32,000 nt of DNA from an uncultured archaeon (GTDB lineage: Archaea > Asgardarchaeota > Thorarchaeia > Thorarchaeales > Thorarchaeaceae). The position numbers and the translations under genes were made by a program. Where the stretch lies: positions 397,049 through 429,048 of the forward strand of contig CAYHAA010000001.1 of the NCBI GenBank assembly GCA_964354495.1, read 5' to 3'. Each line of letters starts with the position of its first letter. The first letter of the stretch is position 1. The notes beneath the pieces were generated by a model. It was not told the DNA's origin. It saw only the letters and a list, made by a program, of their open reading frames with translations, and did not search any database. Positions 3,867 through 27,123 of the stretch are shown piece after piece.

Positions 3867-4229
3867 CTACTCGTCATGTCTTGAGTCTGAATAATGGATT
3901 TGGCAGGTGATTTGTCCCTTCTTGTTGAAAATCCAGCAGTGTTCACAGACAATCTCTCCACAAATGACGCATGTTCCAAGACGCTGATTCAAGTCCGCGA
4001 GACTTGTTTCATTCATACTCTGTGAATGTGTATCGCAATACCCTTTACCGCACCTGCAGCAGACTGCTAGAACCATTTCTCCACAGATAATGCATCTTCT
4101 CCGTTGGTCCTTTAGATTCGCATCGTGCACGATACCAGCATTGCAGTCAGCATTCCTGCATGGTCCCAATCCTTTGTATTCTCCGCAGTACTGACAAAAG
4201 GGGAGAATGTTTGGAGAGTTTCTAGGCAT
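3867..4229 (-). CDS. Small multi-zinc-finger protein (B-box/AN1-like motif plus further treble-clef motifs)
   Basis: 15 Cys in 120 aa, including C-x2-C-x7-C-x2-C-x4-C-x2-H and C-x2-C-x4-C-x2-C-x10-C-x2-H. Confidence 0.8.
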   Translation of the reverse strand: MPRNSPNILPFCQYCGEYKGLGPCRNADCNAGIVHDANLKDQRRRCIICGEMVLAVCCRCGKGYCDTHSQSMNETSLADLNQRLGTCVICGEIVCEHCWIFNKKGQITCQIHYSDSRHDE

Positions 4230-4321
4230 ACTTGTGCACCAGTGTCCAGAGCGCGCTCATATTCTCTCCATAAGAAAGTGTGAAAAGCGTTCCGATGGTT
4301 TGAACAAGGTGTGAGCTGAAC

Positions 4322-6670
4322 ATGGATATTGACCGCCAGAACCTCATCATACCTGCAACGGCCACGAGAAGGTTGCAGCTAGCAGGCGGCCAACCTATGG
4401 AGCAGGCAGTCCCTGAGGACTACGTCTTAGCCGCAATGATCCTTCGCGCGATGGAGAGGCGAGAGGGCCGTTCGCTCGAGTTCATACTGAAGAGCTATCT
4501 ACCGGCTGCAATCGTCAGCTCACCGCAACCTAATCGCTTTTTCCTAGTGGAACTGCTTGGACTCACATCAGAATCCGTCTTGCAAATCCGCAGACCTGCC
4601 TTGCAGAAGATTCAGGAAAAAGTAGACAAAGCAAGTACGTCTGAAGAGCTGTCCAAATGCATACAGACTGCTCGAGATGAAATCAGGAATGTGCTCGAAT
4701 CCACACCGTCGACGATTGTTGGTCTCCTTGCAGGGCTGATTGCCCGTGGAGTTTCCCAAATTCTGGACCGCCCATCAGGGCAGAGCACTGAAGACTATGC
4801 AGTCACACTCACAGGGATTATTGACACTTCAGAGTTTGATAAGTCCATTGGAGTACTTCAGGAAACAGCAGAATCGCTTGCTTCCGTCGAAACCATTCTC
4901 ACAGGATTTCTTGATGCGGCAGTGCCAAGGATTGATGCACTTCTTGGCACTCACCGAGCTGAAGCATCGCCAGTTCTCTCACGCCTTGCTCTTCGAGTAG
5001 AATCATTGGAACAACAGATAGAGTCGCTTGAGTCTCAACGGACAAAGACTGCGGCTATTGCATCTCGTGATAGAAGTACAAAGCTGACGGAGCTTGATTC
5101 TCTGTTGAGCGCACGGAGAGCGGCGCTTGAACGTGATAGAAATCGCCAGTCAGATATTGTCGCAAGTCTTGAGAGTTCTGCTCATGAGCTCATTGTGGGT
5201 CGAGATGAACTGACTGCAGAATCTCGGAGAGTGATTGATCAGGTTCATGGGCAGTTCGCGGCCCTCCAGGATATGCTTGTTTCTGCGAGATTCGACGATA
5301 GCGGCGGAAAGAAGAAATCCATCATAATGATACCCTTCTTCATAGCTGGTTTTTCAAGAAAAGACCAGCTCCATATTGAAGTCTACCCCCTATCTTATTT
5401 CCAAGGCAACGGACTGCGAGTGAGCAGACGTCACGATTTTGTCGATACCTTCTTGTCGCCGTCCCGAGCTATTGATGCACTCTCAGCACTCCTTGAGGAT
5501 AGAGCCAACAACGATGTTGCATTCAGGAAATTCATCCGGGACTCGTCAATAGACCACAATTTGGTGGCTGATGCGAAGGCGAGAGAACTAATCAAGACTG
5601 GAACCGAGTCACTCTTGGGAGATGCTCTGGTCAAGAGACCTCTGGCCGATGAGTTGAATGACTTGCTTCTAGGAATCCCGGAAACGAAGGTTCACAGAAA
5701 GAAGAGGCGCGTCATGACTCCCACCATATCAGATGGCTCTCTATGCAATGTCAAATTCCACGTTCAGAATGAGGCGGGAAAACCCGTTGAAGGTGCAGAA
5801 CTCGAATTCGGAGCATTGCTAATCACCTCGGACGATAATGGCATAGCAAGGACCTCTCTGCCTCGAAGTCACTATGAAGGGCTTGTTCGAGCTCCTAGTT
5901 ATCTTGAGAAGACTATTGATTTCTCAATAACGACCTCTGGCGATGTAGTGATACCAGTAGTCATCGTACCACTGGCTCATGAAGAACAGCTCGCCCTACG
6001 ACTCGACGAGCTCGTTGAACGTGCAAGACGTCTGGATATAATCCGTGACCGACTGTGGGATGCATTTGAGAAGCAGGGACCAACTCTCCTTGGGATTCCA
6101 GCTTATCGATCTGCTCTGATTGAATTACTGTCAGAGCTTGGTTATGAACCAGAGGCATGGATAGCAGAAGCAAAACAGAAGACGGGGATGGTGAAGCGTC
6201 TTCTCAAGAGAGACAATAGAATAGATGGACTTCGCCGGGACATTCTGAGGATGGCTGAGGAGTCGAAGGCATTCGGGGGCATAATGCTCTTTTCAGAGTT
6301 ACTCGTACGTCTAGACAACCTTGGCTGGAGCACTAATTCTGATGAGATTGAAGGAATAATCAACGATATGTCCAAAGAAGGCCTCATCAGAGGTCTCTCC
6401 CCTCTCGATAGCGGAGCTCTCCTCATCGAATTTGTTCCTGTAGCTCTGACCAATGATCCCCAAATGATTCTTGACTTGGCTGCGCGTAGTGAAGGAAAAC
6501 TGACGATTGAGGCTGCTGTTGTAGACCTTGGTTGGAATGAAGAACGCGTCAGAAATGCTCTAAGCCTCTTGATTGGAAACGGAGCAGCAAAAGAGCAGCG
6601 TAGTTATTCAAAGAGCACACAGTATTTCTTCCCTGGACTGCGAGGGGAAAGAAATAAGTCCAATTCTTAG
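4322..6670 (+). CDS. Multidomain protein: coiled-coil N-region + carboxypeptidase-regulatory-like beta-sandwich + C-terminal ESCRT-II Vps22/SNF8 (EAP30)-like tandem winged helices
   Basis: Residues ~553-775 match remembered SNF8 motifs in order: PAYR..LGYEP (PEFR..IGVDP), GGIMLFSEL (GGLITLEEL), VPVALTNDPQMILDLA (VPAELNMDHTVVLQLA), LGWNEERVRNALSLLIGNG (LKWETERARQVLEHLLKEG), YFFPGL (YWLPAL). Residues ~475-550 read VKFHVQNEAGKPVEGA...TSDDNG. Confidence 0.85.
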   Translation: MDIDRQNLIIPATATRRLQLAGGQPMEQAVPEDYVLAAMILRAMERREGRSLEFILKSYLPAAIVSSPQPNRFFLVELLGLTSESVLQIRRPALQKIQEKVDKASTSEELSKCIQTARDEIRNVLESTPSTIVGLLAGLIARGVSQILDRPSGQSTEDYAVTLTGIIDTSEFDKSIGVLQETAESLASVETILTGFLDAAVPRIDALLGTHRAEASPVLSRLALRVESLEQQIESLESQRTKTAAIASRDRSTKLTELDSLLSARRAALERDRNRQSDIVASLESSAHELIVGRDELTAESRRVIDQVHGQFAALQDMLVSARFDDSGGKKKSIIMIPFFIAGFSRKDQLHIEVYPLSYFQGNGLRVSRRHDFVDTFLSPSRAIDALSALLEDRANNDVAFRKFIRDSSIDHNLVADAKARELIKTGTESLLGDALVKRPLADELNDLLLGIPETKVHRKKRRVMTPTISDGSLCNVKFHVQNEAGKPVEGAELEFGALLITSDDNGIARTSLPRSHYEGLVRAPSYLEKTIDFSITTSGDVVIPVVIVPLAHEEQLALRLDELVERARRLDIIRDRLWDAFEKQGPTLLGIPAYRSALIELLSELGYEPEAWIAEAKQKTGMVKRLLKRDNRIDGLRRDILRMAEESKAFGGIMLFSELLVRLDNLGWSTNSDEIEGIINDMSKEGLIRGLSPLDSGALLIEFVPVALTNDPQMILDLAARSEGKLTIEAAVVDLGWNEERVRNALSLLIGNGAAKEQRSYSKSTQYFFPGLRGERNKSNS

Positions 6671-6711
6671 CTTTGTTTAGACTATACTTGCTGGGAATTG
6701 GGGACTGAAGA

Positions 6712-7491
6712 ATGAATCGAGTCGCTCATATGCTATTTCCGTTGGCGATGTTTGTAGGCCTATACTCTCTGATCTATGCCTTTAGTGTCTGGCAGTCAGA
6801 CTTGGGGACTCTCCGCGATCTTCTCTTCTACTATATCGCGGGCGGTATTGCACTCTCAATCTTTTCTGTACCGATTCTCTATTACAAGGCACCTCATAAC
6901 GATATGATGGCTCGTACTACAAGTAATCGTGGGTCTGTGTCAGCCATTGTGTTTGTCACTTTCTGCATGGGGTCTCTAATCGGCACAATCGTGTATCAGT
7001 GGAATACTGGCATTACTATCATTGGCAACATCTCTATCTTCATAGGTGCTCTCATAACTATGACCGGCGCGCTAATGCCTGACTGGGATATTCCTCTCCT
7101 AGGAATGTCACGCCATCGAAATATTATATTTCACTCTCTTTTGCTCCCTCTCTTGATTGTACTGGGAACCCTAGTGAATGTCACTTCAAGGATACTCTCT
7201 TCTACAAGTCTAGCTGTCGGTGCAGAGGTAGAGTACTACATAACTGCACTTTTTCTTCTCGGCTATGCGTCTCATCTCTATCTTGATGTCTTTGAGAGTG
7301 ACGCCAACCCACTTGAGATTTTATGGACCGCAGTTGATCCCGAACATAAGGCGCCATCGAGTCTGAAGCCTCTTGGTCCGATTAGGATAAGCCAGAAGAA
7401 TGCACGCAGATGGCTTGTGGGCAATGCAACATTCCTCGTAGGAATCGCCCTTGCGCTATTTGCTCTATACTTCTACAATATTCTCTCATGA
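6712..7491 (+). CDS. Membrane-embedded metal-dependent hydrolase, YdjM/LexA-binding-like family
   Basis: Multiple TM helices with the motifs G-x-x-x-PD-x-D (GALMPDWD), HR-x4-HS (HRNIIFHS) and G-Y-x-SH-x3-D (GYASHLYLD). Confidence 0.8.
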   Translation: MNRVAHMLFPLAMFVGLYSLIYAFSVWQSDLGTLRDLLFYYIAGGIALSIFSVPILYYKAPHNDMMARTTSNRGSVSAIVFVTFCMGSLIGTIVYQWNTGITIIGNISIFIGALITMTGALMPDWDIPLLGMSRHRNIIFHSLLLPLLIVLGTLVNVTSRILSSTSLAVGAEVEYYITALFLLGYASHLYLDVFESDANPLEILWTAVDPEHKAPSSLKPLGPIRISQKNARRWLVGNATFLVGIALALFALYFYNILS

Positions 7492-14853: not shown

Positions 14854-17800
14854 ATGAGGAGATGCGGTCTAATCGGTATTCTGCTAATAGTGGTCTTCTT
14901 ATTGCCTGTATCAAGCCCATTGGTTCAATCTGAAATGAATCTGGATGAACTCACGAAGCTGAGTCCGCTCGTTGGAGGATCGACCGTATCTCAGAGTGGT
15001 GAGCTGAACTCTGGCACAGGTACATCTCTTCCTGTTTCGATTAGCGGCATCGTGTCAAACGTTGGCTCTGGTGCCATGCAAATCACCTCTGCAAGTCCTG
15101 GAACAAGTACTGTCACACTTACCGATGGTTGGACAGGTACCAATCTTGCCGCTCAGATTGAGTCACTATCTATGACGACAGACAATGTCCTGCGCAACAG
15201 TAACCTGAACAACTACCATTCGGAGAGGTTCCTTGTCAGTTCCACCGCCGCATACAACGGTGAAGCCCATCCTGTGCCTAATAGCTGGACAATGTACAAG
15301 AGCGTCGCAAATGACGAGAAACATCCAAATCATGGCGTATATGAAATCGAGGCAAGTCCCAGTGGTTATGGTGGAACATATGGTCTCTTTCTAGAGTCCC
15401 AATATGGAACTAGTTTCAGCCACAATCCAAATGATGAAGTCTTCATCAGCCAGATGATTTCCACTCCATGGCGAGCTGTCTATACTGCTCAAATCTCGTT
15501 CAAGTATTACATTACTTCAAGCTCTACGATGACAGACAAGCTCCACTTGTTCACGAGGTTGGGCGGTTATGTCACCAAGTATCATGTGTTCGAATCTGGT
15601 GACACGACGAATACTTGGCTGACTGCATCAGTGGTGGTCCAGGCGGCTTCTCTGCAAGGACTTGCAAACCGTGTGCTGCAGCTCGACATCGGTCTTGCCA
15701 CTGACTTGAGCGGCACGCAGTCTCTAGCAGCCAATGCATATGCCTACATTGATGACGTGCAGCTGAGTTTTGTGGTCCGTCCCTTCCCCGAGCAGATTGA
15801 CCTCAAGGCAAATGGAACTATTGTATGGGGTTCTACCTCTGGAAGCACCTACCCATATGTCCCTGACGATGCCGATCGTGATTGCTGGGACTACTCAAGC
15901 GGTATTGACCTTGATGGCTACAACGATGACGGTAATATTGAATTTGGCATTTATGGCAGTGATTGGACTGTAGATGCCGATTTCCAGATTGGCCTCCAGT
16001 TTCCTGTATCTATCCCCAGGGGTGTAATCATCACTTCAGCATGGGTGGAGATGGAAGCAGTCTCGTCATCAAGCCCTAATCTGTACGGTGCACGAGTCTA
16101 TATTGCAGACGCTGATAATGTAGGTGCTTTTACAACAGGACTGCCCCATCTGGAGGACAGATACAGTTGGGTGCCAACAAGTATAGACTGGACCTTCAAC
16201 TCATGGATAACGTTTCCTGATACTCGATACAAGTCCCCCGAGATAGGGCCACTTATTCAGAAAGTTGTCAGCCGACCTGGATGGTCCCAGGACAACTACA
16301 TGTGTCTTATGATTGACTACATGGACTCCGACTACTTCCAGAGATATAGCAACATAAAGGGAAGCACAGGTTGGGGCCCGGAGGATCTCGCAAGACTCTA
16401 TGTCGAGTATGTCATACCGGAAGATGAAGATCACGCGGTCTTCTACAATTTCCAGAAGACTATCACAATAGACCACACACGTGTTGCTGCTACGCTCACG
16501 AACTTCCCTGTCCTCATCGACATCATCGATACCGATTTGAAGAATCATGTTCTGTCAGGTGGCAATGACGTTGCTTTCACTCTGAATGGCCAGCCTCTTG
16601 ATTATGAGATTGAGCTTTTTGATCAGAACTATAATACCACGCATGCTCATCTCGTGGCATGGGTCAAAGTTCCTAGTTTGTCTAGCACCATTGATACGGC
16701 GATTACCATGCACTATGGATGTGAAGACGTACCATCGAGCTACTCCACTGGTGTGTGGGACAGCTATGAGATAGTCCAGCACCTCAACGACAATCCTACG
16801 GGAACACAACATGATAGCTCTGCAAACGATCACCATGGTACATCATATGGGGCTATGACGACTGATGATCTCCTAGCTGGCAGGATTGGGAGTGCCATTG
16901 AGTTCGATGGCATCGACGATGTCATCTCAGTGGGTCAGATATACACGGATCAGTGGTCACAACTCACTGTGAGTGCTTGGGTCTATCATGATTTGACCTC
17001 TGATGACCGTATCTTCTCAAAAGCTCCTAGCACGACCCCCCCCGACTGCATCATGCATCTTGGCATCACTGGCTCAGGCAATATGAGAGCCCGACTGTCA
17101 ACAGATGAATCTGCGTCGGGCAACTATGATAGTCTGACGATTCCATCGAACCTGAATTGGCACCTTCTCACTTGGACCTGGAGCTCAGCCGGAACAGTGT
17201 ATCTATACATAGACGGAAGTCTGGATCGCTCTCTAGCTAGGACTGGCACATCAGTGAAGAATTCCGATCTGATGTTCATTGTAGCCAATTGGGAAACCGG
17301 CACGAGCGATTCTAGGCATTGGGACGGCAAGATTGACGAAATCAGAATGCTGCCCGCACTTCTCTCAGGCGATTGGATTCTCACAGAATGGAGAAATCAG
17401 AATAGTCCATCAACATTCTACTCTGTAGGAACAGAGTCAGGGAATCCTGATGTCTGGACCGATGCCGGAGAAACGAGTGTGCTCTTCACGACAGATTCTA
17501 CGGCACCAGTCACATTGGATGTCAACCTCACATTCGATATCAGCGGAAATGGTCAGACCCTCGATGAGGACCTTGACCCTGGTACAAGCTTCTTCATTGA
17601 GAGTGGAAGCAGCATTGTCAATTGGACCGCAAGGGTCATGGTCTCACCCCCTGCTGGTGCCACGTCTTTCGGTTTCAGCGTGGAATACCCGATGGCGGAG
17701 TGGAAACCGACAGCAGCGCTCAATCCGTTCAACAATGCCAAGAGTTACCCGCAGGACTGGTGGTATCAGGCAGGAACTCTGTCCATCAATTCCTCGGCTA

Positions 17801-20800
17801 TCGATTTCTGGGGTATCTGGACGCTCAAATTCATCAGCTGGAACTTTGCCCAAGACTTGGTCTTAGGAAGAACTGGAGAAGCGCTCTCGACCACAGCGAC
17901 TTTCAACATTGGCGACTCCATGAAGTACTTGGCAACCACTCCCACCGTCCAGGGAGCAACTGTCGGGCTTGTGCTGACTGATCCGACTGGCTCCGTACGG
18001 TATTCTCTTTATAATTCGACAGTCACTAATCCATCACACAAGTTTCCGTCATTTAACTATAGGAAGGACTTCACAATAGTCCCTACCAACAATGTGTACG
18101 AAAATGTAGTTGACTTCCCGATTGCTCTTGATTTCACAGACACTGATCTTCACAGCACAAACAAGGTTCGAGCTGATGGTTCGGACATTATGTTTGCCAT
18201 GGGCAGCACCATTCTCCCTCACCAGATAGAGTACTTCAAGCAGGACTACACTCCAACAGACGCTCGTCTGGTAGTGTGGGTCTGTGCCAATCTCTCCTCT
18301 ACGGTCACGAATACGTTCTCAATGTACTATGGAAGTCCAATTGTCGATAATCTCGAAGACCCTGAAGGTGTCTGGGGTCCAAACATGGAAGCAGTCTGGC
18401 ACCTAGGAGAGGATGTAGTTGATGAAGGCTCCACAGGCGTGCACTACGACGCGACCGGAAATGGCTACAATGGCGTGCAGCACGGGAACGTCGAGACTCT
18501 TACATCACGCGTAGGCTACGCTCAGACCTTTGACGGCAACGACTACATCGAATTCTCCGACACTCTTGCCCCTCCCGGCAATGTAATGATTACCGGTTGG
18601 TTCCGGATATCCTCCACACACAGTCCCACGACCGCAACCACGAAGGTGATCATGGAGAAGTACCTTGATGGCGACCACAATATGGTCATTGCGCTTGTTG
18701 GACAAGATTACGGGCAAGGAACAGTCCCGAATGGAACCCTTGTCTTCAAAGTTGAGAGCGCGTCGGGCCAGGCCATGTACAAATGGACGACTAGGACTAC
18801 TTGGAATGCAGGTTGGTACTATATTGGTTGTTATGCCAATGAGTCGGACCCATCAAAGAACAAGATCTTTGTGGGATTCTCAACCGCCGCCTATGATACA
18901 GCAGTCGGCCAGGTTGGGTCAGGAACTCAGGTAAATATGAGCTATGTTGAGGAATGGCGACTTGGCGGCAGCGATTATGACATTGCCACTCCCAAGACGG
19001 GTTGGTTCACAGGCAATATAGATGAATTCCGGATTGCCACTGTGTACCGTTCTGAGGGGTGGCTCAAGACTGAGTGGGATAACCAGGCATCGCCCACGAC
19101 ATTCGCCTCGAAAGGAACCGAACAGGCGCGGACATCACCCAACCATACCTTCACCCAGACTCTGGCCTCAACTGCTCCTGCAGGCATCTGGACCGCCTCT
19201 GTCTACTACAACGATACTGGTGCATCAGTGTCAACTCGAACTGGCCTCTTTGAACGCACCTTCACAGTGAAGCGCAACACATACCTCACGCTCGCCAAAC
19301 CAACAGATGCTGTCGGTGATCGCCTGTCCGTCAAGACCGCTGGGGACGCAGTGATTGTTGAGTTTGAACTGAAGGACACACTGAATGCTCAGCTCGTCAA
19401 CGGTGCAACTGTCACCATCAACTGGACTTCTCCGAGCACGGTGACTCTTGACTCCTATGGAGGAGGGAAGTATGGTAAGGTGCTTGACACAAATGGCCTT
19501 GCCAGTGCGAAGAGATGGCGAATCAATGTGCAATCAACTCATCCGTACTACAACAATGCGAACGAGTACTTCGATATTGACCTCTATCATAATACTGGAC
19601 TCGACTCTTCAGGTGTATCGACTACTCCCGTTGGAGAGGACTTCACCGCGACGCTCACATTCATGGACTCATACACAGGAACGCCCATTCAGGGAGCAGC
19701 TATTACCTTTTCAGACAACTCACCTGTGCAATCTTATGTTGACGAGGGAGGCGGTGTCTATAGTGTGACTGTCGACTCCGCGGCTCTGAGCCTCGGTGAC
19801 CACGTATATACTCTCAAAGCCACTTCCAGTAATGCCTATCTGAAGACAGCAACTGTCACAGTGACATTCACCTTGAGGGCACACTATACATCAGTTTCAG
19901 TTCAAGGGGACTTTGTGACACCGTACGGAAGTAACACACAGGTCACAGTGGTCTTGATTGACCTAGACACCGGACTGCCGGTAACGATTGGAAGTGTTTC
20001 TACATTCTCCTTCACTACCGACTCTTATGCAGCTGATAACTTCGGTTCACTCTCAAGCTTCACACAGACACTGACAACAAATGACTGGTTGATAGGCACA
20101 GAAACCGTGACTCTCACGGTCACGATGTCCAGCACGAATTTCCTGGCTCCTGACCAATTTCAGTTTGATATTACAATCAGGCGCCACAGGACTTCACTGA
20201 CCATAGCTGGAGTCGTGACACAGCCCTATGGAAATCTGACTCCACTCACGGCAATCCTCACAGACCTTGATACTGGCACTCCTGTGCCTATTGGTGCTGT
20301 GCAACAAATACTGTTCCAATGGATTGGTGGATCCCAGACACTGTCTGGGAGTTACACCGTGTCCTTGGCCACTAGCGCATGGCCGGTGGGGACAAGGATT
20401 GTCCAAGTGATTACTACTATGGTTGCAGGTGCGACATATGACGCACCCTCCAACTACCAGTTCACAGTCACTATCCGCAAGATGGCAACAGTCTTGTACT
20501 ATGATCCTTCAAGTTTCACCTTTCCACTTGGCACTGATTTCGAAGTCAATCTTCGTCTCAATGTGAGTGAACCCGGACAGTACTATGGTGATCCAATCAC
20601 AGGAAGGACTGCAGGCGAGTTCTCAGTTCCACCTTACACGTTCACGCTTAATACTGCTGATAATGCCGTTGGCAGATACAAACTAACAATCAGTGCATCC
20701 TACTTCGTGGGGGGTTCATATGAGATTCGCGTCTACTTCGTTTCTGCAGATAGCCGCTACGCGGACGCGTCTGTGCTTATCCGATTCACCTACCGACAAA

Positions 20801-23800
20801 TCCAAAGCTATCTGACTTCACCGAACTATCCGCAGGTAACAACTCCCTACGGCATGGATGTTCAAATCACGCTCAACTACACAGATGCTGACTATGGAAC
20901 AGGTATCGAGGGTGCGATGATATCATCTCCCGACCACCCGGCTTGGGTCTATGGACAAGTTGATCTCGGTGAAGGTGTCTACACAGTCTGGATTGATGTG
21001 GAGGGATTGACTCAAGGCACACATTACATCAGCCTCACTGCTACCAAAGCGGGCATTGATGCAAAGACGCTGCAGTTCAGAATCATTGTCAGAGCTGCCT
21101 ACACCTCCGTCATTCCCTCAGTCGGGTCACTCGTGATACCTCTTGGCAGTTCTGTGACCTTCTACGTCGACTACACGGACCTCGATAGGCTGCTGCCAAT
21201 TGACAACAATACCGGTGACACTGATGTTGTTTCCTCCTGGGGCAGGTTCACGGTCGAGTATGTAATAGCGATGCAGAGATACAGGATTGTGTTCCAGACT
21301 ATAGACTCAGATGGTGTTTCCTCAAATGTCGTCCGAACCTTCACTTTCTCAAAGGGAGCAAACTATCAGGTTGCAGGCTTCAATATCACAGTCACAATTC
21401 GCACGCACAATACTGACTTCCGACTTGTTAGTTCTGTTGAACCAACTAGCACGATTGGAATATTCAACATCTCAGTATACTATGGAGACCTCGATGATGC
21501 AGTCGGCATCAAGTCGACTCTTGTCATCTTCTCCGTCTACAATGCATCCGGACTCGTTTCCTCGAGCTACAGTTATGACCTAGTGCTTGGTGATGGTTTC
21601 TACAGAATCCAGGTGCCTGCCTCACAATTTGGCCTCGGTCTGCAGACATTCACAGTGTATGCTGACTGGACGGGCACGTATCCGAAGTATCAGGACAAGT
21701 CTCTTGTCACGACTGCGAGCGTTGTGGGCCGTGAGTCTGCATTGACTCTTCTGCTCTCCTCTGAACCAACACCCTACCTCGGTACGATGAGCTACACCTT
21801 CTTCTTCAGTGACATCTTCAGCGGCATTGGAATTGACAATCTGACCGGCCATGTCTTCATCTTTGTCAGTTTCCAGGGCGAAATCATCGAACCCTCAGAC
21901 ATAACCATAATCGACCGGTCTGCAACACAACCTGGCAACTATTCGATTCAGTTCAATACGTCTGTCCTTAGCAGAACTGGCCTGTTCTTTATGGACATCT
22001 CCATGGAGTGGGCGAAGGGTGTTTCGCCCTACTATGCAAACCGCACTGATGTTGTTTCCCTAAGGGTGCTACAACGAGACACCTTGCTGCAGACCACGCC
22101 TCCATCTCCTACAAGTTATGGTGAGAATGCAACCTTCACCTTCACTTTTGAGGACATAACCGGAGAACTCAGCATCCCTATCAACGATGGTCCCACATTA
22201 ACAGTTCAGTTGAGTCTTGCTGACTATTCAGTATCGTACAATGCCATATCACACATATTCACAGTGTCCTTCAATACCGACCAGTTTGGCACAACACTGG
22301 GTTCACACTCATTCACCCTCGATGTCATATGGAGCGGCGTCCCGTTCTATGCAAGTCGCACCGGAAAATTGGTATCAGTGACAGTGATTGCCCGTGAAAC
22401 ATTCATGGAGTATCTCACCCCTGCTCCCACACAATACATGGACACGGTTGTGTTCAATGTCACATGGACCGATATCACTGGTGGCGCTTCAGACCCGATC
22501 TCCGGGTCAACTCTCACTCTCTATGATGGTCTGACTCCGATCAATGTAGCCAAGTACAGCTATGTTGAGGTGGCATCGGGCATATACAGGATCACTCTCA
22601 ACACCACCTATGCTCCCTCCCCAGGAACATATCAGCTCCGCGTCGGACTCAATGCTGGAGTCTCGTACATCACTCCAGCCTACGTCATTCGCGAATTCAG
22701 TATCAGATACAGGATTACATTGCTCTCCGCGGAGCCAGTCGCAGCGGTGCCCTACAACTCGCCCGCCCAAGTCATTCTCTATTACCAAGACCTGTACACT
22801 GCCAGTCTTATCGCGAACACATCAGCTGGCTCGTATCCTGTGAACCTGCAGTTCCTCACAGGCAGCAATTGGATCTATTCAGTCGTCTGGAATCCTGTCT
22901 TCAAACACTATGAACTATCTATACAAACCTACAATCAGGGATTCGTCATCGGCGCACCTGTGACCGTGACGCTGAGGATGAGCTATGACATTCAAGCTCC
23001 CTTCTATGCATCGGATGACCTCATCATGCAGTTCACGCTGCGAATACGCTACTCTAGCCTAACCCTGACCTCTGAACCTGAGACCACGCCCTACGGCGAC
23101 AATGCTCAGTTCAGAGTCTTCTTTGCAGACGCTGATGCAGCAGGTGCTGGCATAGCGAACGCTCAAATCGTGGTTCTCAACAACTCAGTGCCCTTGACGC
23201 TGAATACGCATTACACACTCTCACAGGGTATTGCTGGGGAGTATATCCTCACAGTCGACTCAGAGTTCCTAGGAGGTCTGGGAACCCGCTCACTCACGGT
23301 GAAAGCGAATTGGATTGCGGGTTCTCCCTACCATAGCAATGCGACTCGAGTTGTCAGTATCCTTGTACGCGCGAGAGAGACAAGTCTCGATGTGACCATA
23401 CCTCCCTCTCAGGTGAAGTATCTCGATGACGTCACATTTGCTTTTGTCTACACCGACCTAGATGCTGCCGCTCCTATAGCAGCAATCATGGCATCGTATA
23501 TCCACCTGAGGTTCGCCAATGGCACGGAGATTATTGGTGGCTACACGATAACTCCTGTGGGCTCATCCTTCGAAGTGGTGATCTCGTCGACGAGAGTGTC
23601 GAACATACCGGTCACTGGTCTTTCACTCATCGTTGGTGTTGACTGGCCAGGCTCTCTAGCGCCATTCTACGCGGACGACACGACGACCCTCAAGATAACA
23701 ATAGTCGGGCGCAGCATCCTTGTTGAGACAGGACAGATAGACCGAACTCCTAAGGGTGACACGCTTTCAATCGTCCTGACCCTCGCGGACCTCGACAATG

Positions 23801-26800
23801 GCAATCCTGTCACAGGAGCCATCATCCTCTTCAGTTCCCAGAACGAGAGTCTTGTGCAGGGAGTCAACTATGGCATATCTGAGCTGACCGGAACGTACAC
23901 AATCAGTGTATACACTGGCACCTTCCCCGGTATTGGCGTGTTCCTGTTCGACGTGGAGGTTCGTTGGAATCCACTTGTCTCGCCGTTCTATGGCAACAGA
24001 ACAACTGGCACGCTCAATGGTCTGATAGATACCATCAGAGCATCACTTCAGGCTGGTTCGCCTGTTCCATCCACGGTACAGATAACCGGAAGTGTATCGC
24101 TCATAGTGACCTATAGCGATCTTGACCACGGGCAGGCCGGAATACTAGGCGCATTTATCACGGCCGAGTACGTTCCAAATACCAGTCCCGTTGTCGGTTT
24201 CATATTTACTCCCGTTGCAGGGCAGCCTGGTCAGTACAACATCAGCTTCAGCACATCCAATCTACCTGCCACCGGAAGCTATACACTTCGAATAACAGCG
24301 ACAAAGAGCAACTATGCTACGTCACAGACAACGCCCTCTTTCAGTGTGACTCTCATCAGTACAACACTGACACCGGTACTCTCGTCCATTACAGTCAACT
24401 GGAGTATTCAAGCGCACGTGGTTGTCTTCTTCAAGAGTCTGCTCACTGGTTCTGGTGCAATAGGCGCAACAGTCACATATTCAGTCTTCGGCCTGCCAGT
24501 GACCGGCATGACACTGAATGGCACACCGGGCTACTATGAGGCGTACATCGATACGTCTTTCATTGGTGCAGGTACGCGAGTGGTCATTATCCAGGCTACC
24601 AAGGATCAGCACTTCCCCGCCACAACAACGGTTACACTCATCATTCTGACTCTGCCCAGTGAGATGACCATCATCGCGCCAACTGAAGAAGTATTACCCG
24701 TGCCACGAGGAGACCCCGTGACTGTCAATATCACTCTGACAGATGCTAACGGTGTTCCGATTCCTGTGAATCTAGTAACAGAAGAAGTTTACATCACTTT
24801 CAGAGGTCAACGATACTACCTTGTCCGAATTGACTTTACTTCGATTTGGACGGGGACCATTCCAGCTGGAGGACCTACAATATTAGACCCGGCTTCATAC
24901 GATGTCAGAATCACTGCAGTCATCGATAATTACAATCCTGCAGTGAGCCAGTTCAAGATACTCATCGAACAGACCACAACAGAAGTGAGTCCCCTATATC
25001 CTGCAGATCCATTTTTCGATCCCGAGAGCCCGCGTATAGAGGCAGTGTATTCGGAAATCATTACTTTCAGACTCAACTTCACTGTTCCTGCGATTAACGA
25101 CACTCCGATAACTGATGCCTTTGTTTATTGGTATGAAGTGCGGTGGGCGCTCAATCTGAGTTTCGTACATACGGGCGGAGGAATCTGGGAGCTCACATTC
25201 GACACGTCCCAAGGCAGATATGGTACTTGGGGTATCACATTCACAGGAATTCCGGATAATCCGATTTATGCGGCAGATGAGGTAAGTCTCACCCTCACCA
25301 TCAAGAAGATTACCACCGCGGTTATTGGGCCCTTGACACCAGAGTCCTATCCTTGGGGCTGGGTCGGAAACATCAGCTTCTTCTACAATGATACTTGGTT
25401 CAACGCGGGTGTAGATAACGCCACTGTGACCTTCGACTATGGTCCGTTCAATAACATTCCTGCATTCGACCTTGGCAACGGAACGTATCTTGTTCAGATT
25501 GACACGACATATCTGGAGTCGAATGCCCGACATAGAATCATTGTGAACCTCGCAAAGGAGAACTATGAGGAACGAACCACCGGCATCAATATCAATGTGG
25601 AGTTGCGTCCGACAGTTCTAGTTGTCATCTCAGACGAGCAGAGTCAGATTGGAGGTGATTCAGCCAACCTCCAGATTCCGATGGGCGACTCATTCTATGT
25701 TGCCTTCTTCTATAACGATACAAGCCCCATAGGTGGTCTGAGCGGCGGCATAGCCAGTGCGACTATCGGTGATAACACCCTCTTCGGAAGCACTGCATTT
25801 GGAGGCCAGCGCAATTTCACTCTTCAGAATCTGGGTGGAGGGTACTATCGCTTCTTCTTCGATACCACAGACACGAGTCTCTACCTCTTCTCTGAGGGAG
25901 TTCCTCAGACTGGTGAGAGATTCTTCTTCACCATCAGCCTTGAGTTTGAGAACCGGAAGTCCCAGGAAGTAGAAGTGGTCATCACTGTGATCGATGTCCC
26001 AACAGAGTACATCTTTGAATATCCACTAGATTTGGACTTCGTTCATGGAGACACGCTCAGGTATCGCATCTATGTGAATGATACATGGCACAATAGACCC
26101 GTTGTTGGTGCCTCTATAACAGCGGATTGGAATCCTGCAGTCGTAGTGACAGGCAATGGAACAGATGCGCCTGGTCGGTACTACGTGGACCTCTTGGCAA
26201 GTGCAGCTGGTGCAAGCGGGTTTATTGACATCTCAATCGTACTTGAGTACCATTCGATGGCACCAATCCGTATATCCGCTTATTCTGCTCCCAATGATAC
26301 AGACGTCTTGATTGGCCAGATCACTCGTATCGGCCTGCCAATCAGCCTTCTAGTCATCACTCTCTTAGGACTCTACGTAAGAGTGTGGAGCGTGCCAAAG
26401 AGAATACGTCAGATAAACAGGCAGATAAAATCAATCAGGAAGAACAAGGTTCCAAGGCCAATCTCCGATGTGAAAGAGAGAAAGCAGCTCATCGCGGACT
26501 TGTTCAATGATACTCTCTCAGAACTCAAGATCACTCGCACTGCTGCAGATATGCCGGAGGAGTCCATTCCGATTGATGTGCCTGAGATGGGAGGATTGCT
26601 CATGCAGCTGGCAATTCTCACGAACCTCAGTGCTGATGAACTGGAGGACTTCAAAACAGACATCTCAAAGATGAAGATGAGCGAACAGGCTGCCTTCGTC
26701 AAAGAGGTCATCATGCAGGAAGCCACTCGGGCTGCCCGACGCGATGGCAAGACAATCGAGGACACCCTCAAGACAGTCAAGAGAGAGGCAAGCAAGCGTC

Positions 26801-27123
26801 TCAGTGGCGAAGAAGCCATCGAAACAGCTGCTCCTGTCAAGAAGGCTGCAGAAGAGCCTAGGCTGCTGCCTCCGGATGAAGAACCAGTAGAACCCGTGGT
26901 ACCGGTCAAGAAGAAGCCAGTGTCCAAGAAGGGTCCCGTCGAGGAAGAGGCTGAGGTAAAACCGGAACGAATGAGCACGAGTGAGATCGAGGAGTTGCGC
27001 AGGGATCTTGAAAGACGAGGTGTTCCCCCCTACGAGATTGATACCATCCTTGAACAGGCTCGTGCACTACCAAGAGAACTGGTGGAAGAGCTTGTAAAGA
27101 GCCTCGAAGAGAACAAGAAGTAG
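14854..27123 (+). CDS. Giant (4089 aa) type I membrane surface protein: signal peptide, DNRLRE/CBM96-like domain, 2x (DUF2341-like + LamG), about 22 Ig-like repeats, TM helix, ~245-aa cytoplasmic tail
   Basis: DUF2341-like segments lie at ~16444-16720 and ~18052-18333. LamG-like segments (VW/HL, FDG.D.I, SAWV, W.G.IDE.R) lie at ~16750-17420 and ~18370-19110. The TM is IGLPISLLVITLLGLYVRVW at ~26326-26390, followed by a basic stop-transfer stretch. There are many N-x-S/T sequons. Confidence 0.9.
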   Translation: MRRCGLIGILLIVVFLLPVSSPLVQSEMNLDELTKLSPLVGGSTVSQSGELNSGTGTSLPVSISGIVSNVGSGAMQITSASPGTSTVTLTDGWTGTNLAAQIESLSMTTDNVLRNSNLNNYHSERFLVSSTAAYNGEAHPVPNSWTMYKSVANDEKHPNHGVYEIEASPSGYGGTYGLFLESQYGTSFSHNPNDEVFISQMISTPWRAVYTAQISFKYYITSSSTMTDKLHLFTRLGGYVTKYHVFESGDTTNTWLTASVVVQAASLQGLANRVLQLDIGLATDLSGTQSLAANAYAYIDDVQLSFVVRPFPEQIDLKANGTIVWGSTSGSTYPYVPDDADRDCWDYSSGIDLDGYNDDGNIEFGIYGSDWTVDADFQIGLQFPVSIPRGVIITSAWVEMEAVSSSSPNLYGARVYIADADNVGAFTTGLPHLEDRYSWVPTSIDWTFNSWITFPDTRYKSPEIGPLIQKVVSRPGWSQDNYMCLMIDYMDSDYFQRYSNIKGSTGWGPEDLARLYVEYVIPEDEDHAVFYNFQKTITIDHTRVAATLTNFPVLIDIIDTDLKNHVLSGGNDVAFTLNGQPLDYEIELFDQNYNTTHAHLVAWVKVPSLSSTIDTAITMHYGCEDVPSSYSTGVWDSYEIVQHLNDNPTGTQHDSSANDHHGTSYGAMTTDDLLAGRIGSAIEFDGIDDVISVGQIYTDQWSQLTVSAWVYHDLTSDDRIFSKAPSTTPPDCIMHLGITGSGNMRARLSTDESASGNYDSLTIPSNLNWHLLTWTWSSAGTVYLYIDGSLDRSLARTGTSVKNSDLMFIVANWETGTSDSRHWDGKIDEIRMLPALLSGDWILTEWRNQNSPSTFYSVGTESGNPDVWTDAGETSVLFTTDSTAPVTLDVNLTFDISGNGQTLDEDLDPGTSFFIESGSSIVNWTARVMVSPPAGATSFGFSVEYPMAEWKPTAALNPFNNAKSYPQDWWYQAGTLSINSSAIDFWGIWTLKFISWNFAQDLVLGRTGEALSTTATFNIGDSMKYLATTPTVQGATVGLVLTDPTGSVRYSLYNSTVTNPSHKFPSFNYRKDFTIVPTNNVYENVVDFPIALDFTDTDLHSTNKVRADGSDIMFAMGSTILPHQIEYFKQDYTPTDARLVVWVCANLSSTVTNTFSMYYGSPIVDNLEDPEGVWGPNMEAVWHLGEDVVDEGSTGVHYDATGNGYNGVQHGNVETLTSRVGYAQTFDGNDYIEFSDTLAPPGNVMITGWFRISSTHSPTTATTKVIMEKYLDGDHNMVIALVGQDYGQGTVPNGTLVFKVESASGQAMYKWTTRTTWNAGWYYIGCYANESDPSKNKIFVGFSTAAYDTAVGQVGSGTQVNMSYVEEWRLGGSDYDIATPKTGWFTGNIDEFRIATVYRSEGWLKTEWDNQASPTTFASKGTEQARTSPNHTFTQTLASTAPAGIWTASVYYNDTGASVSTRTGLFERTFTVKRNTYLTLAKPTDAVGDRLSVKTAGDAVIVEFELKDTLNAQLVNGATVTINWTSPSTVTLDSYGGGKYGKVLDTNGLASAKRWRINVQSTHPYYNNANEYFDIDLYHNTGLDSSGVSTTPVGEDFTATLTFMDSYTGTPIQGAAITFSDNSPVQSYVDEGGGVYSVTVDSAALSLGDHVYTLKATSSNAYLKTATVTVTFTLRAHYTSVSVQGDFVTPYGSNTQVTVVLIDLDTGLPVTIGSVSTFSFTTDSYAADNFGSLSSFTQTLTTNDWLIGTETVTLTVTMSSTNFLAPDQFQFDITIRRHRTSLTIAGVVTQPYGNLTPLTAILTDLDTGTPVPIGAVQQILFQWIGGSQTLSGSYTVSLATSAWPVGTRIVQVITTMVAGATYDAPSNYQFTVTIRKMATVLYYDPSSFTFPLGTDFEVNLRLNVSEPGQYYGDPITGRTAGEFSVPPYTFTLNTADNAVGRYKLTISASYFVGGSYEIRVYFVSADSRYADASVLIRFTYRQIQSYLTSPNYPQVTTPYGMDVQITLNYTDADYGTGIEGAMISSPDHPAWVYGQVDLGEGVYTVWIDVEGLTQGTHYISLTATKAGIDAKTLQFRIIVRAAYTSVIPSVGSLVIPLGSSVTFYVDYTDLDRLLPIDNNTGDTDVVSSWGRFTVEYVIAMQRYRIVFQTIDSDGVSSNVVRTFTFSKGANYQVAGFNITVTIRTHNTDFRLVSSVEPTSTIGIFNISVYYGDLDDAVGIKSTLVIFSVYNASGLVSSSYSYDLVLGDGFYRIQVPASQFGLGLQTFTVYADWTGTYPKYQDKSLVTTASVVGRESALTLLLSSEPTPYLGTMSYTFFFSDIFSGIGIDNLTGHVFIFVSFQGEIIEPSDITIIDRSATQPGNYSIQFNTSVLSRTGLFFMDISMEWAKGVSPYYANRTDVVSLRVLQRDTLLQTTPPSPTSYGENATFTFTFEDITGELSIPINDGPTLTVQLSLADYSVSYNAISHIFTVSFNTDQFGTTLGSHSFTLDVIWSGVPFYASRTGKLVSVTVIARETFMEYLTPAPTQYMDTVVFNVTWTDITGGASDPISGSTLTLYDGLTPINVAKYSYVEVASGIYRITLNTTYAPSPGTYQLRVGLNAGVSYITPAYVIREFSIRYRITLLSAEPVAAVPYNSPAQVILYYQDLYTASLIANTSAGSYPVNLQFLTGSNWIYSVVWNPVFKHYELSIQTYNQGFVIGAPVTVTLRMSYDIQAPFYASDDLIMQFTLRIRYSSLTLTSEPETTPYGDNAQFRVFFADADAAGAGIANAQIVVLNNSVPLTLNTHYTLSQGIAGEYILTVDSEFLGGLGTRSLTVKANWIAGSPYHSNATRVVSILVRARETSLDVTIPPSQVKYLDDVTFAFVYTDLDAAAPIAAIMASYIHLRFANGTEIIGGYTITPVGSSFEVVISSTRVSNIPVTGLSLIVGVDWPGSLAPFYADDTTTLKITIVGRSILVETGQIDRTPKGDTLSIVLTLADLDNGNPVTGAIILFSSQNESLVQGVNYGISELTGTYTISVYTGTFPGIGVFLFDVEVRWNPLVSPFYGNRTTGTLNGLIDTIRASLQAGSPVPSTVQITGSVSLIVTYSDLDHGQAGILGAFITAEYVPNTSPVVGFIFTPVAGQPGQYNISFSTSNLPATGSYTLRITATKSNYATSQTTPSFSVTLISTTLTPVLSSITVNWSIQAHVVVFFKSLLTGSGAIGATVTYSVFGLPVTGMTLNGTPGYYEAYIDTSFIGAGTRVVIIQATKDQHFPATTTVTLIILTLPSEMTIIAPTEEVLPVPRGDPVTVNITLTDANGVPIPVNLVTEEVYITFRGQRYYLVRIDFTSIWTGTIPAGGPTILDPASYDVRITAVIDNYNPAVSQFKILIEQTTTEVSPLYPADPFFDPESPRIEAVYSEIITFRLNFTVPAINDTPITDAFVYWYEVRWALNLSFVHTGGGIWELTFDTSQGRYGTWGITFTGIPDNPIYAADEVSLTLTIKKITTAVIGPLTPESYPWGWVGNISFFYNDTWFNAGVDNATVTFDYGPFNNIPAFDLGNGTYLVQIDTTYLESNARHRIIVNLAKENYEERTTGININVELRPTVLVVISDEQSQIGGDSANLQIPMGDSFYVAFFYNDTSPIGGLSGGIASATIGDNTLFGSTAFGGQRNFTLQNLGGGYYRFFFDTTDTSLYLFSEGVPQTGERFFFTISLEFENRKSQEVEVVITVIDVPTEYIFEYPLDLDFVHGDTLRYRIYVNDTWHNRPVVGASITADWNPAVVVTGNGTDAPGRYYVDLLASAAGASGFIDISIVLEYHSMAPIRISAYSAPNDTDVLIGQITRIGLPISLLVITLLGLYVRVWSVPKRIRQINRQIKSIRKNKVPRPISDVKERKQLIADLFNDTLSELKITRTAADMPEESIPIDVPEMGGLLMQLAILTNLSADELEDFKTDISKMKMSEQAAFVKEVIMQEATRAARRDGKTIEDTLKTVKREASKRLSGEEAIETAAPVKKAAEEPRLLPPDEEPVEPVVPVKKKPVSKKGPVEEEAEVKPERMSTSEIEELRRDLERRGVPPYEIDTILEQARALPRELVEELVKSLEENKK
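19273..26300 (+). repeat. About 22 diverged ~100-110-aa beta-sandwich repeats (protein-level repeat)
   Basis: The recurring pattern T-x-L...P-Y-G...Y-x-D-x-D...PI-x-GA...G-x-Y-x-I...G-x-Y/H...Y appears at a ~300-330-nt period. Confidence 0.8.

Follow-up and report, generated by a model that had tools for sequence, protein, structure and literature searches.

What might a Vps22-type module be doing at the far end of a long, soluble protein of a Thorarchaeia archaeon, and is the join between the two real? Few machines of Asgard archaea are as clearly eukaryote-like as ESCRT-II. According to the experimental literature, each Asgard genome has one Vps22/36-like gene and lacks Vps36, for which Vps22 homodimers stand in (PMC9192718). 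In the window analysed here, the whole stretch of 32,000 nucleotides, an intact single open reading frame (positions 4322-6670, plus strand) encodes 782 residues, as the preliminary description had it. Its parts follow one another in the order head-and-hairpin module, polybasic linker, beta-sandwich and Vps22 module:

4322..6670, plus strand: whole open reading frame P0001, 782 aa plus stop; 127 homologues, the majority full-length
4322..4825, plus strand: N-module head, first half, residues 1-168 (AF2 model)
4826..5269, plus strand: antiparallel helical hairpin (AF2 model, alignment)
5270..5686, plus strand: N-module head, second half, residues 317-455 (AF2 model, alignment)
5687..5743, plus strand: disordered polybasic linker, residues 456-474 (pLDDT below 50; net charge +5)
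5744..5965, plus strand: transthyretin-like / CarboxypepD_reg-type beta-sandwich, residues 475-548
5978..6205, plus strand: Vps22 N-terminal helical domain, residues 553-628 (aligns to SNF8 from residue 29 and to the N-terminal part of standard Asgard Vps22; helices in the AF2 model)
6215..6436, plus strand: Vps22 winged helix 1, residues 632-705
6455..6637, plus strand: Vps22 winged helix 2, residues 712-772 (sequence conservation, SNF8 profile alignment, AF2 model)

The C-terminal Vps22 module

Based on the sequence, profile and structural matches presented here, the protein closes with an entire Vps22/SNF8 module of 230 residues and is a genuine Vps22-type (ESCRT-II) paralogue, as first proposed from motifs of human SNF8. 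Residues 553-772 form a full-length homologue of Vps22/SNF8, a helical domain followed by two winged helices, the second of which terminates in an invariant Y.FPGL motif common to the short Vps22 of the same genome. In phmmer searches of the PDB, residues 540-782 matched human SNF8 (2zme_A, E 3.3e-6, query 18-234 on chain 26-239) and yeast Vps22 (1u5t_A, E 2e-4) and no other protein significantly, the next match standing at E 2.9; with the family profile these values became E 1.7e-13 for the human protein (profile positions 13-227 of 231) and E 2.3e-7 for the yeast one, and the profile's PDB sequence matches below E 0.01 were Vps22 only. The eukaryotic Vps22/SNF8/EAP30 proteins (2zme_A, 3cuq_A, 1u5t_A) share with the module a colinear helical domain, WH1 and WH2 and the same fold, but identity is ~21-23%, and what is there a protein of 230-260 aa is here the end of a protein of 782 aa. 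The Foldseek comparison with ESCRT-II structures that had been suggested as a check placed Vps22 chains at ranks 1-3 for the AF2 model of the module (pLDDT 80; E 4.5e-8 to 2.4e-7, ~218 columns), with Vps36 next; the TM-scores to Vps22 stayed at 0.34-0.37, low values that reflect a different pose of the helical part when the module is modelled alone.

The suggested Pfam search gave a divided answer. EAP30 (PF04157) is recognised in 49 of the 58 family members with E-values no higher than 1e-3, the lowest being 8.1e-9, and scores 70 bits on the orthologue in genome G108, but on this protein it reaches 11.7 bits over the whole length and 15.6 bits over residues 540-782, both below the curated cut-off of 26.8. 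Of the winged-helix-type families in Pfam, EAP30 alone turned up in the 58 members, which answers in its favour the doubt that the C-terminus might score as a generic wHTH. The module is also clearly homologous to the standard Asgard Vps22 (asCOG cog.002769; PMC9192718; PMC10936438), to which hhalign aligns it with a probability of 100% (E 1.8e-39, 219 columns). The long protein nevertheless scores less well against SNF8 (E 1.7e-13) than do the standard Asgard Vps22 (1.9e-35) and the short Thor form (4.6e-22); it has diverged, and its partner surfaces may have changed.

The N-terminal module and the integrity of the fusion

The preliminary description placed a plain coil in front of the beta-sandwich. 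This part of it does not hold, since the first ~470 residues are a globular head and a hairpin in the AF2 model of the N-module (m011b040292d6; pLDDT 88.6, pTM 0.77). The coiled coil itself is real, but it is longer than had been stated and consists of two antiparallel helices, residues 169-245 (77 residues) and 251-316 (66 residues), the second of which carries invariant R265, A268, R271 and D272. The first half of the head runs beta-beta-beta-alpha-beta-beta-beta-alpha-alpha, then another strand and helix, and a conserved PFF.AG motif, common to stand-alone and longin-fused relatives, follows the hairpin. The linker has a median net charge of +5 over 58 homologues (range -5 to +6). The beta-sandwich lies where it was first placed and is probably transthyretin-like, CarboxypepD_reg (PF13620) reaching 20.6 bits, below its cut-off of 32.3. 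The absence of a signal peptide and of a TM helix was likewise upheld, the highest Kyte-Doolittle value over a 19-residue window being 1.73, on a Pro-containing beta-strand.

Sequence searches of PDB, Pfam and NCBIfam with the N-module returned coiled-coil noise only, the hairpin gave generic hairpin and coiled-coil matches only among PDB structures, and the fold searches with the head (PDB Foldseek, VIA-align on 48,161 chains, AFDB Swiss-Prot) gave lists filled by hairpins, coiled coils and HlyD. A language-model look-alike search with residues 1-170 yielded unnamed clusters only, below 0.9. For residues 1-125, the order of elements alone suggests a longin/roadblock fold (beta-beta-alpha-beta-beta-beta-alpha(-alpha)), the fold lists being hairpin-dominated; Pfam finds no Longin match in the long protein, and in relatives from other Asgard a distinct N-terminal longin domain precedes the module (weak Pfam matches, E 5e-4 to 6e-3). 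HlyD-type membrane fusion proteins resemble the N-module in topology, a long alpha-hairpin being inserted into a beta-rich domain in both (E about 1e-4 to 1e-3 in Foldseek), but the TM-scores are 0.13-0.26 and the long protein is cytosolic, with neither TM anchor nor signal peptide; we judge this likeness to be an analogy of shape only. Stand-alone homologues of the N-module, cytosolic proteins of ~540 aa, occur in Bathyarchaeia and other Asgard, and the module is thus not a plain coiled-coil scaffold. In Bathyarchaeia and Hecatella the neighbours of these stand-alone relatives are housekeeping genes and give no clue to function. One weak relative of the N-module, the match being mostly to the hairpin, adjoins an ABC ATPase and an FtsX permease.

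That the fusion might be an assembly or frameshift artefact joining two unrelated genes is so improbable that we set it aside. Nothing was found in favour of it, and the same colinear architecture recurs in more than 120 full-length orthologue clusters of Thorarchaeia, which come from numerous samples, as well as in another class. Moreover, single contigs from two DNA runs of two independent metagenome studies span the gene uninterrupted at ~95% identity, their only indels being a compensating +1/-1 pair in the last few codons. The 127 homologues, 39-97% identical, are mostly 730-840 aa long, a few being shorter or partial. Of the 43 genomes of the family, 36 have the full-length N-module, as does the one sister-family genome searched. 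The recommended search of other Asgard genomes also brought up colinear homologues in Asgardarchaeia, where one protein was aligned end to end and its C-terminus matches the Vps22-module profile at about E 1e-26; the fusion spans more than one lineage. Small metatranscriptome contigs map to all three parts of the gene. Three Thor genera, represented by genomes that are 95-99% complete, have lost the fusion gene and kept both the short Vps22 and the syntenic locus. Because these genera do without the fusion in an otherwise syntenic locus, the gene is accessory and its function dispensable.

Two Vps22 forms in one genome

The fusion gene lies at C1:401 kb, 330 kb from a locus at C1:67-72 kb that holds Vps4, Vps25, the short Vps22 and one ESCRT-III gene; a second ESCRT-III gene lies at 361 kb, 40 kb from the fusion. 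The co-encoding with Vps25, ESCRT-III and Vps4 that is typical of Asgard is not seen for the fusion gene. The short Vps22 (270 aa) adjoins Vps4 and the only Vps25 of the genome (a 245-aa frame on the minus strand); within the family, 40 of 43 genomes have this short form. In this protein a Vps28-type steadiness box replaces the helical domain (SB-WH-WH), and of the two forms only the long protein keeps the helical pairing domain, the part that eukaryotic Vps22 is described as using to pair with Vps36 (PMC10936438). Standard Asgard Vps22 proteins are usually encoded in ESCRT loci and measure 240-280 aa in our EAP30 frames, in line with the ~220-260 aa first quoted, whereas the long protein is three times longer and is encoded elsewhere, beside a short copy.

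Other candidate partners and paralogues were considered. In three lineages, 2-8 kb separate the fusion from an orthologue of an Arf-like GTPase. Obligate coupling to it was rejected, as genomes lacking the fusion keep the GTPase at 70-77% identity and the two show no co-loss. A 368-aa neighbour, restricted to one family, was discounted at the sequence level as an ESCRT-II-like (tandem WH) subunit, its hhalign probability for the Vps22 module being 0.7%; its PDB profile search returned generic winged-helix matches only (E > 0.02). The third weak EAP30 match in the genome, in a 706-aa frame, is the C-terminal winged helix of an MCM and no paralogue.

In design, the long protein is an archaeal counterpart of eukaryotic Vps36, a Vps22 paralogue with an N-terminal targeting module. 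It differs from Vps36 in having neither GLUE/PH domain nor zinc fingers, Pfam finding no PH/GLUE match in it, and of the two eukaryotic proteins the fusion profile matches Vps22 only; the profile of standard Asgard Vps22 matches both. The likeness to Vps36 is an independent (analogous) elaboration, with no orthology. A similar layout is described for arCOG09748 from euryarchaeal ESCRT loci (PMC10936438), in which a Vps22-like winged helix at the C-terminus accompanies a helical/coiled-coil part and a globular domain whose fold is unknown; compared by description only, those proteins differ from the long protein in having a single winged helix and in being encoded beside Vps4 and ESCRT-III.

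Proposed role and its alternatives

We propose, with a probability of roughly 0.6, that the long protein is a soluble accessory subunit of the ESCRT-II type, an alternative stalk subunit analogous to Vps36 whose N-module serves in targeting; Vps25 binding and the target are what we infer. The Vps22 module would use its helical domain to pair with another Vps22-type chain, either itself or the short SB-Vps22. Winged helix 2 would bind the single Vps25 of the genome, which in turn would feed ESCRT-III and Vps4, and the N-module, perhaps together with the basic linker, would set where or on what the Vps22 module acts. The putative recruitment of Vps25/ESCRT-III to a different site, raised from the outset, may take place. 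Against the proposal stand the lack of linkage of the gene to those for ESCRT-III, Vps4 and Vps25, its loss in three genera and its weaker score against SNF8.

The same lack of linkage to any ESCRT gene would suit an ESCRT-independent scaffold, in which the tandem winged helix has been re-used for generic protein or nucleic-acid binding and the head and hairpin work in, for instance, chromosome/DNA handling or an ATPase-linked machine. The greater divergence of the protein from eukaryotic Vps22 compared with other Asgard copies points in this direction, as do the HerA/DUF87-fused proteins among the weak structural neighbours of the N-module and the weak SMC/Rad50-type coiled-coil matches of its stand-alone relatives. 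However, the HerA matches have TM-scores of 0.15-0.36 and probably concern the hairpin only, the SMC matches lie far below cut-offs, and the Vps22 unit has been kept whole, including the pairing domain and the invariant Y.FPGL, and no other part of the protein is as well conserved (its columns average 80% identity, those of the N-terminus 56%). We consider such a scaffold unlikely. An alternative of another kind concerns origin: the long protein could be the original main Vps22, with an N-terminal extension, and the short SB-WH-WH form the derived paralogue. The fusion profile matches standard Asgard Vps22 over its full length (up to 132 bits), whereas its match to the Thor short form is confined to the winged helices (about 83 bits); once Asgardarchaeia proteins are included in the tree, all the fusions group as a single clan, to which the short form is not sister. 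By contrast, the short form is the one that adjoins Vps25 and Vps4, it is present in nearly all genomes of the family (40 of 43), the fusion has been cleanly lost in three genera, and both an earlier tree (99/84) and leave-one-out placements join the two Thor forms. That support for a Thor-specific duplication is lost once the Asgardarchaeia fusions are added; the two trees, which are unrooted, disagree, and each comes with long-branch warnings. An origin as the main Vps22 seems to us quite improbable.

Returning to the accessory subunit, a more specific version of it is that the long paralogue, the short SB-Vps22 and two Vps25 would make up a heteromeric Y-shaped ESCRT-II. Its head-and-hairpin, possibly under the Arf-like GTPase, would do the targeting without ubiquitin, as a Vps36 analogue arisen independently of eukaryotes. 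This assembly is offered tentatively, and the odds are against it in this exact form. Thorarchaeota seem to be without ubiquitin (PMC9192718).

The architecture was unfamiliar when first noted and has remained so: it is absent from Pfam and NCBIfam and has no description in the searchable literature. The database entries inspected for the long protein carry only the name "hypothetical protein" or that of a PEGA domain, and the accession numbers of six family members are absent from every searchable paper and from the supplements of PMC10936438 so far as these are searchable. Judged from sequence, what is new is the presence in two Asgard classes of a second, long Vps22-type predicted subunit, one that combines an entire pairing domain with a large module at the N-terminus. 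Its significance is tempered by the extensive shuffling of domains among ESCRT parts already known in Asgard (PMC10936438) and by its dispensability in some genera. If the long protein assembles with Vps25 and the short Vps22, the passage from a homomeric ESCRT-II to a heteromeric one with a targeting subunit would have arisen more than once. Such an assembly would also offer a tractable archaeal system for the aiming of ESCRT-II without ubiquitin, and would give a first functional handle on an unannotated head-and-hairpin family that is widespread in Bathyarchaeia and Asgard.

A complete Vps22 module in a long protein

In the 3.3-Mb genome that holds the window (C1:397049-429048; 97.7% complete), the preliminary description had proposed an ESCRT-II Vps22 paralogue fused behind a coiled coil and a beta-sandwich, and both the fusion itself and the identity of its C-terminus are upheld here.

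Fusion gene and ESCRT-related genes of the source genome
Window 4322-6670, + strand: fusion ORF, 782 codons, uninterrupted
G000 C1:361313-361798: second ESCRT-III gene (Snf7, 67.6 bits), outside the canonical ESCRT locus and 40 kb upstream of the fusion
L001:1186-1995 (extracted locus at about 69 kb of G000 C1): short Vps22, in which a Vps28-type steadiness box replaces the standard Vps22 helical domain

The fusion is a cytosolic protein in which an N-module (residues 1-455), a linker, a putative transthyretin-like beta-sandwich (residues 475-548) and a complete, strongly conserved Vps22 module (residues 553-772) follow one another, and it is paralogous to the short Vps22. Three lines of evidence show that it is not an assembly or frameshift artefact: it has 127 homologues, 39-97% identical and mostly of 730-840 aa (a few are shorter or partial), the closest of which are labelled Thorarchaeota in the protein collection; Asgardarchaeia-labelled proteins of 761-784 aa contain the N-module, beta-sandwich and Vps22 module, one of them aligning with the fusion from end to end (22% identity, E = 4e-29); and two DNA runs, each of a separate study, contain unbroken contigs that span window positions 4000-7000 with about 95% identity and with no indels except one compensating pair in the last few codons. 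Among 201 genomes sampled phylum-wide, the full-length N-module, in frames of 660-930 aa, occurs in 36 of the 43 that belong to the window's family and in the single one from a sister family; EAP30 matches elsewhere in the phylum are almost always in 240-280-aa frames. Four short contigs of a wetland metatranscriptome, on the N-module and Vps22 module, give a weak hint of expression.

The C-terminus matches EAP30/Vps22 in preference to generic winged-helix families. In a PDB sequence search with residues 540-782 alone, the only significant matches were human SNF8 (E = 3.3e-6; query positions 18-234 align with chain positions 26-239) and yeast Vps22 (E = 2e-4), the next match being at E = 2.9. 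A profile of the C-termini of 58 orthologues (A4) matched SNF8 over its full length (E = 1.7e-13, positions 13-227 of 231) and yeast Vps22 (E = 2.3e-7), with no other matches, Vps36 and Vps25 being absent. In an AF2 model covering residues 468-782 (pLDDT 80), residues 553-628 are helical and are followed by a first (632-705) and a second (712-772) winged helix; SNF8/Vps22 chains take the top three Foldseek places for this model (E-values between 4.5e-8 and 2.4e-7, alignments of about 218 columns), ahead of Vps36. Pfam EAP30 scores 11.7-15.6 bits in the fusion itself, under the cut-off, is present in 49 of 58 family members, and reaches 70 bits in the G108 orthologue, the most distant of those from Thorarchaeales; no other winged-helix-type family was detected.

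The linker and the archaeal N-terminal module

The linker (residues 456-474) is polybasic and predicted to be disordered, with a net charge of +5, which is also the median across 58 homologues, with exceptions among members. Residues 1-474 are modelled with confidence (pLDDT 88.6, pTM 0.77) as a globular head, formed by 1-168 together with 317-455, into which two long helices (169-245 and 251-316) are inserted as an antiparallel pair. Against solved structures only hairpins and HlyD-type adaptors were retrieved, with low TM-scores, a comparison that barely probes the head. In predicted-structure libraries, uncharacterised proteins of archaea contain the whole N-module: these are AFDB clusters (E-values from 4e-18 to 2e-9; one entry is Q96YK3, 456 aa) and ESM Atlas clusters (381-552 aa, TM 0.51-0.62) from Bathyarchaeota, Thermoproteota, Promethearchaeota and Thorarchaeota. 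An exhaustive profile search gave about 90 clusters of roughly 520-570 aa, matched over positions about 50-450 (E = 1e-16 to 1e-3), those named being Bathyarchaeia and Hecatella. The closer relatives examined share N-terminal and post-hairpin motifs with the fusion and have neither transmembrane helix nor signal peptide. A longin domain precedes the N-module in other Asgard genomes (weak Pfam matches), and the gene contexts of stand-alone forms were uninformative. In another Asgard genome (L012:3931-7461, - strand), an FtsX-type permease and an ABC ATPase are followed by a 542-aa hairpin protein weakly similar to the N-module, an order resembling MacAB-type transporters with their adaptor.

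Gene neighbourhood and loss of the fusion

In the window's family, the fusion gene is divergent from a set of four genes; in this genome a 281-aa ORF lies between the last two.

Genes divergent from the fusion (window coordinates)
3867-4229, - strand: Cys-rich zinc-finger protein, 120 aa
2674-3780, - strand: 368-aa protein with a C-terminal winged helix; stop overlaps the GTPase start
1826-2677, - strand: Arf-family GTPase, 283 aa (Pfam Arf, 69.8 bits), with a roughly 120-residue N-terminal extension
280-876, - strand: steadiness-box-like protein, 198 aa, with N-terminal coiled coil, Pro-rich linker and C-terminal hairpin

The hairpin of the last protein gives weak CdvA/steadiness-box-type Pfam matches (18 bits; 23.5 bits in the G108 orthologue), both under the cut-off. 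The 368-aa protein is found solely in the window's family, and hhalign connects it neither with the Vps22 winged helices nor with the N-module. The sister family has three of the four genes within 4 kb, rearranged: the GTPase at 58% identity, the steadiness-box-like protein at 31%, and the zinc finger at 36%, the last in the same position and with weak B-box/AN1-type matches. The Asgardarchaeia fusion locus has a GTPase orthologue (32%) at 7 kb. The GTPase, whose conservation is far above the fusion's, lies 2-8 kb away from it in each of three lineages, and this repeated closeness suggests a link. The link is not obligate: three genera include five genomes, 95-99% complete, that have no fusion but retain a GTPase with 70-77% identity. 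At three such loci (L074, 8229-9529; L075; L076), from three Thor genera, the synteny of GluRS, YdjM, zinc finger, 368-aa protein, GTPase and steadiness-box-like protein is intact and the fusion gene alone is cleanly missing, with no remnant ORF detected; 48 bp separate YdjM from the zinc finger in L074. Elsewhere in the window are two successive ORFs, 14854-27123 (+ strand, 4089 aa) and 27319-31998 (+ strand, >1560 aa, continuing past the window end).

Origin and possible role among ESCRT proteins

At 330 kb from the fusion gene lies an ESCRT locus of the classical Asgard kind, which encodes a 270-aa Vps22 (EAP30, 48.7 bits), the sole Vps25 of the genome (46.8 bits), Vps4 and one ESCRT-III protein. 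The steadiness box of this Vps22 (PDB 2f6m_B, E = 0.003, family-profile residues 15-82) agrees with Table S3 of PMC10936438. In several non-Thor Asgard families the EAP30-type genes number two or three, with 387-aa forms in family f16 among them, so the rule of one Vps22/36-like gene in each Asgard genome does not hold throughout. Hatano et al. 2022 (PMC9192718) and Makarova et al. 2024 (PMC10936438) describe short forms of Asgard Vps22 and numerous fusions of ESCRT-I type; the present architecture, and six accession numbers of family members, are not mentioned in the searchable literature.

In the first maximum-likelihood tree, the fusion clan grouped with the clan of Thor short forms, apart from other Asgard Vps22 (99/84), a grouping that carries a long-branch warning, and leave-one-out runs placed each clan on the same branch. 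Once the Asgardarchaeia fusions were included, a single clan held all fusions (88/94), and the short forms branched elsewhere with weak support. Because the fusions form one clan, and independently because they have a common N-module, the fusion likely arose once. A profile of 20 standard Asgard Vps22 (A7) matches SNF8 over its full length (1.9e-35) and also Vps36 (3.5e-16), whereas that of 9 Thor short forms (A6) matches SNF8 over the winged helices only (4.6e-22), its N-terminus matching the Vps28 steadiness box (E = 0.003). By hhalign, the fusion module aligns with standard Asgard Vps22 over 219 columns (probability 100%, E = 1.8e-39) and with the Thor short form over 148 winged-helix columns only (E = 7.7e-25). 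This calibration of A4 against A6 and A7 makes the long protein the more divergent Vps22 copy; it alone in this genome also keeps the N-terminal helical domain, which in eukaryotes probably favours Vps22-Vps36 pairing (PMC10936438).

Less likely readings are that the Vps22 module has been re-used independently of ESCRT, or that the lineage's Vps22 was this long form from the start. We favour the reading of the fusion as an alternative ESCRT-II stalk subunit, which would pair through its helical domain and bind Vps25 through its second winged helix, its target being set by the N-module, perhaps with the basic linker. In a lineage reported to be without ubiquitin and without Vps36 (PMC9192718), such a stalk subunit with N-terminal targeting would have the same design as Vps36.
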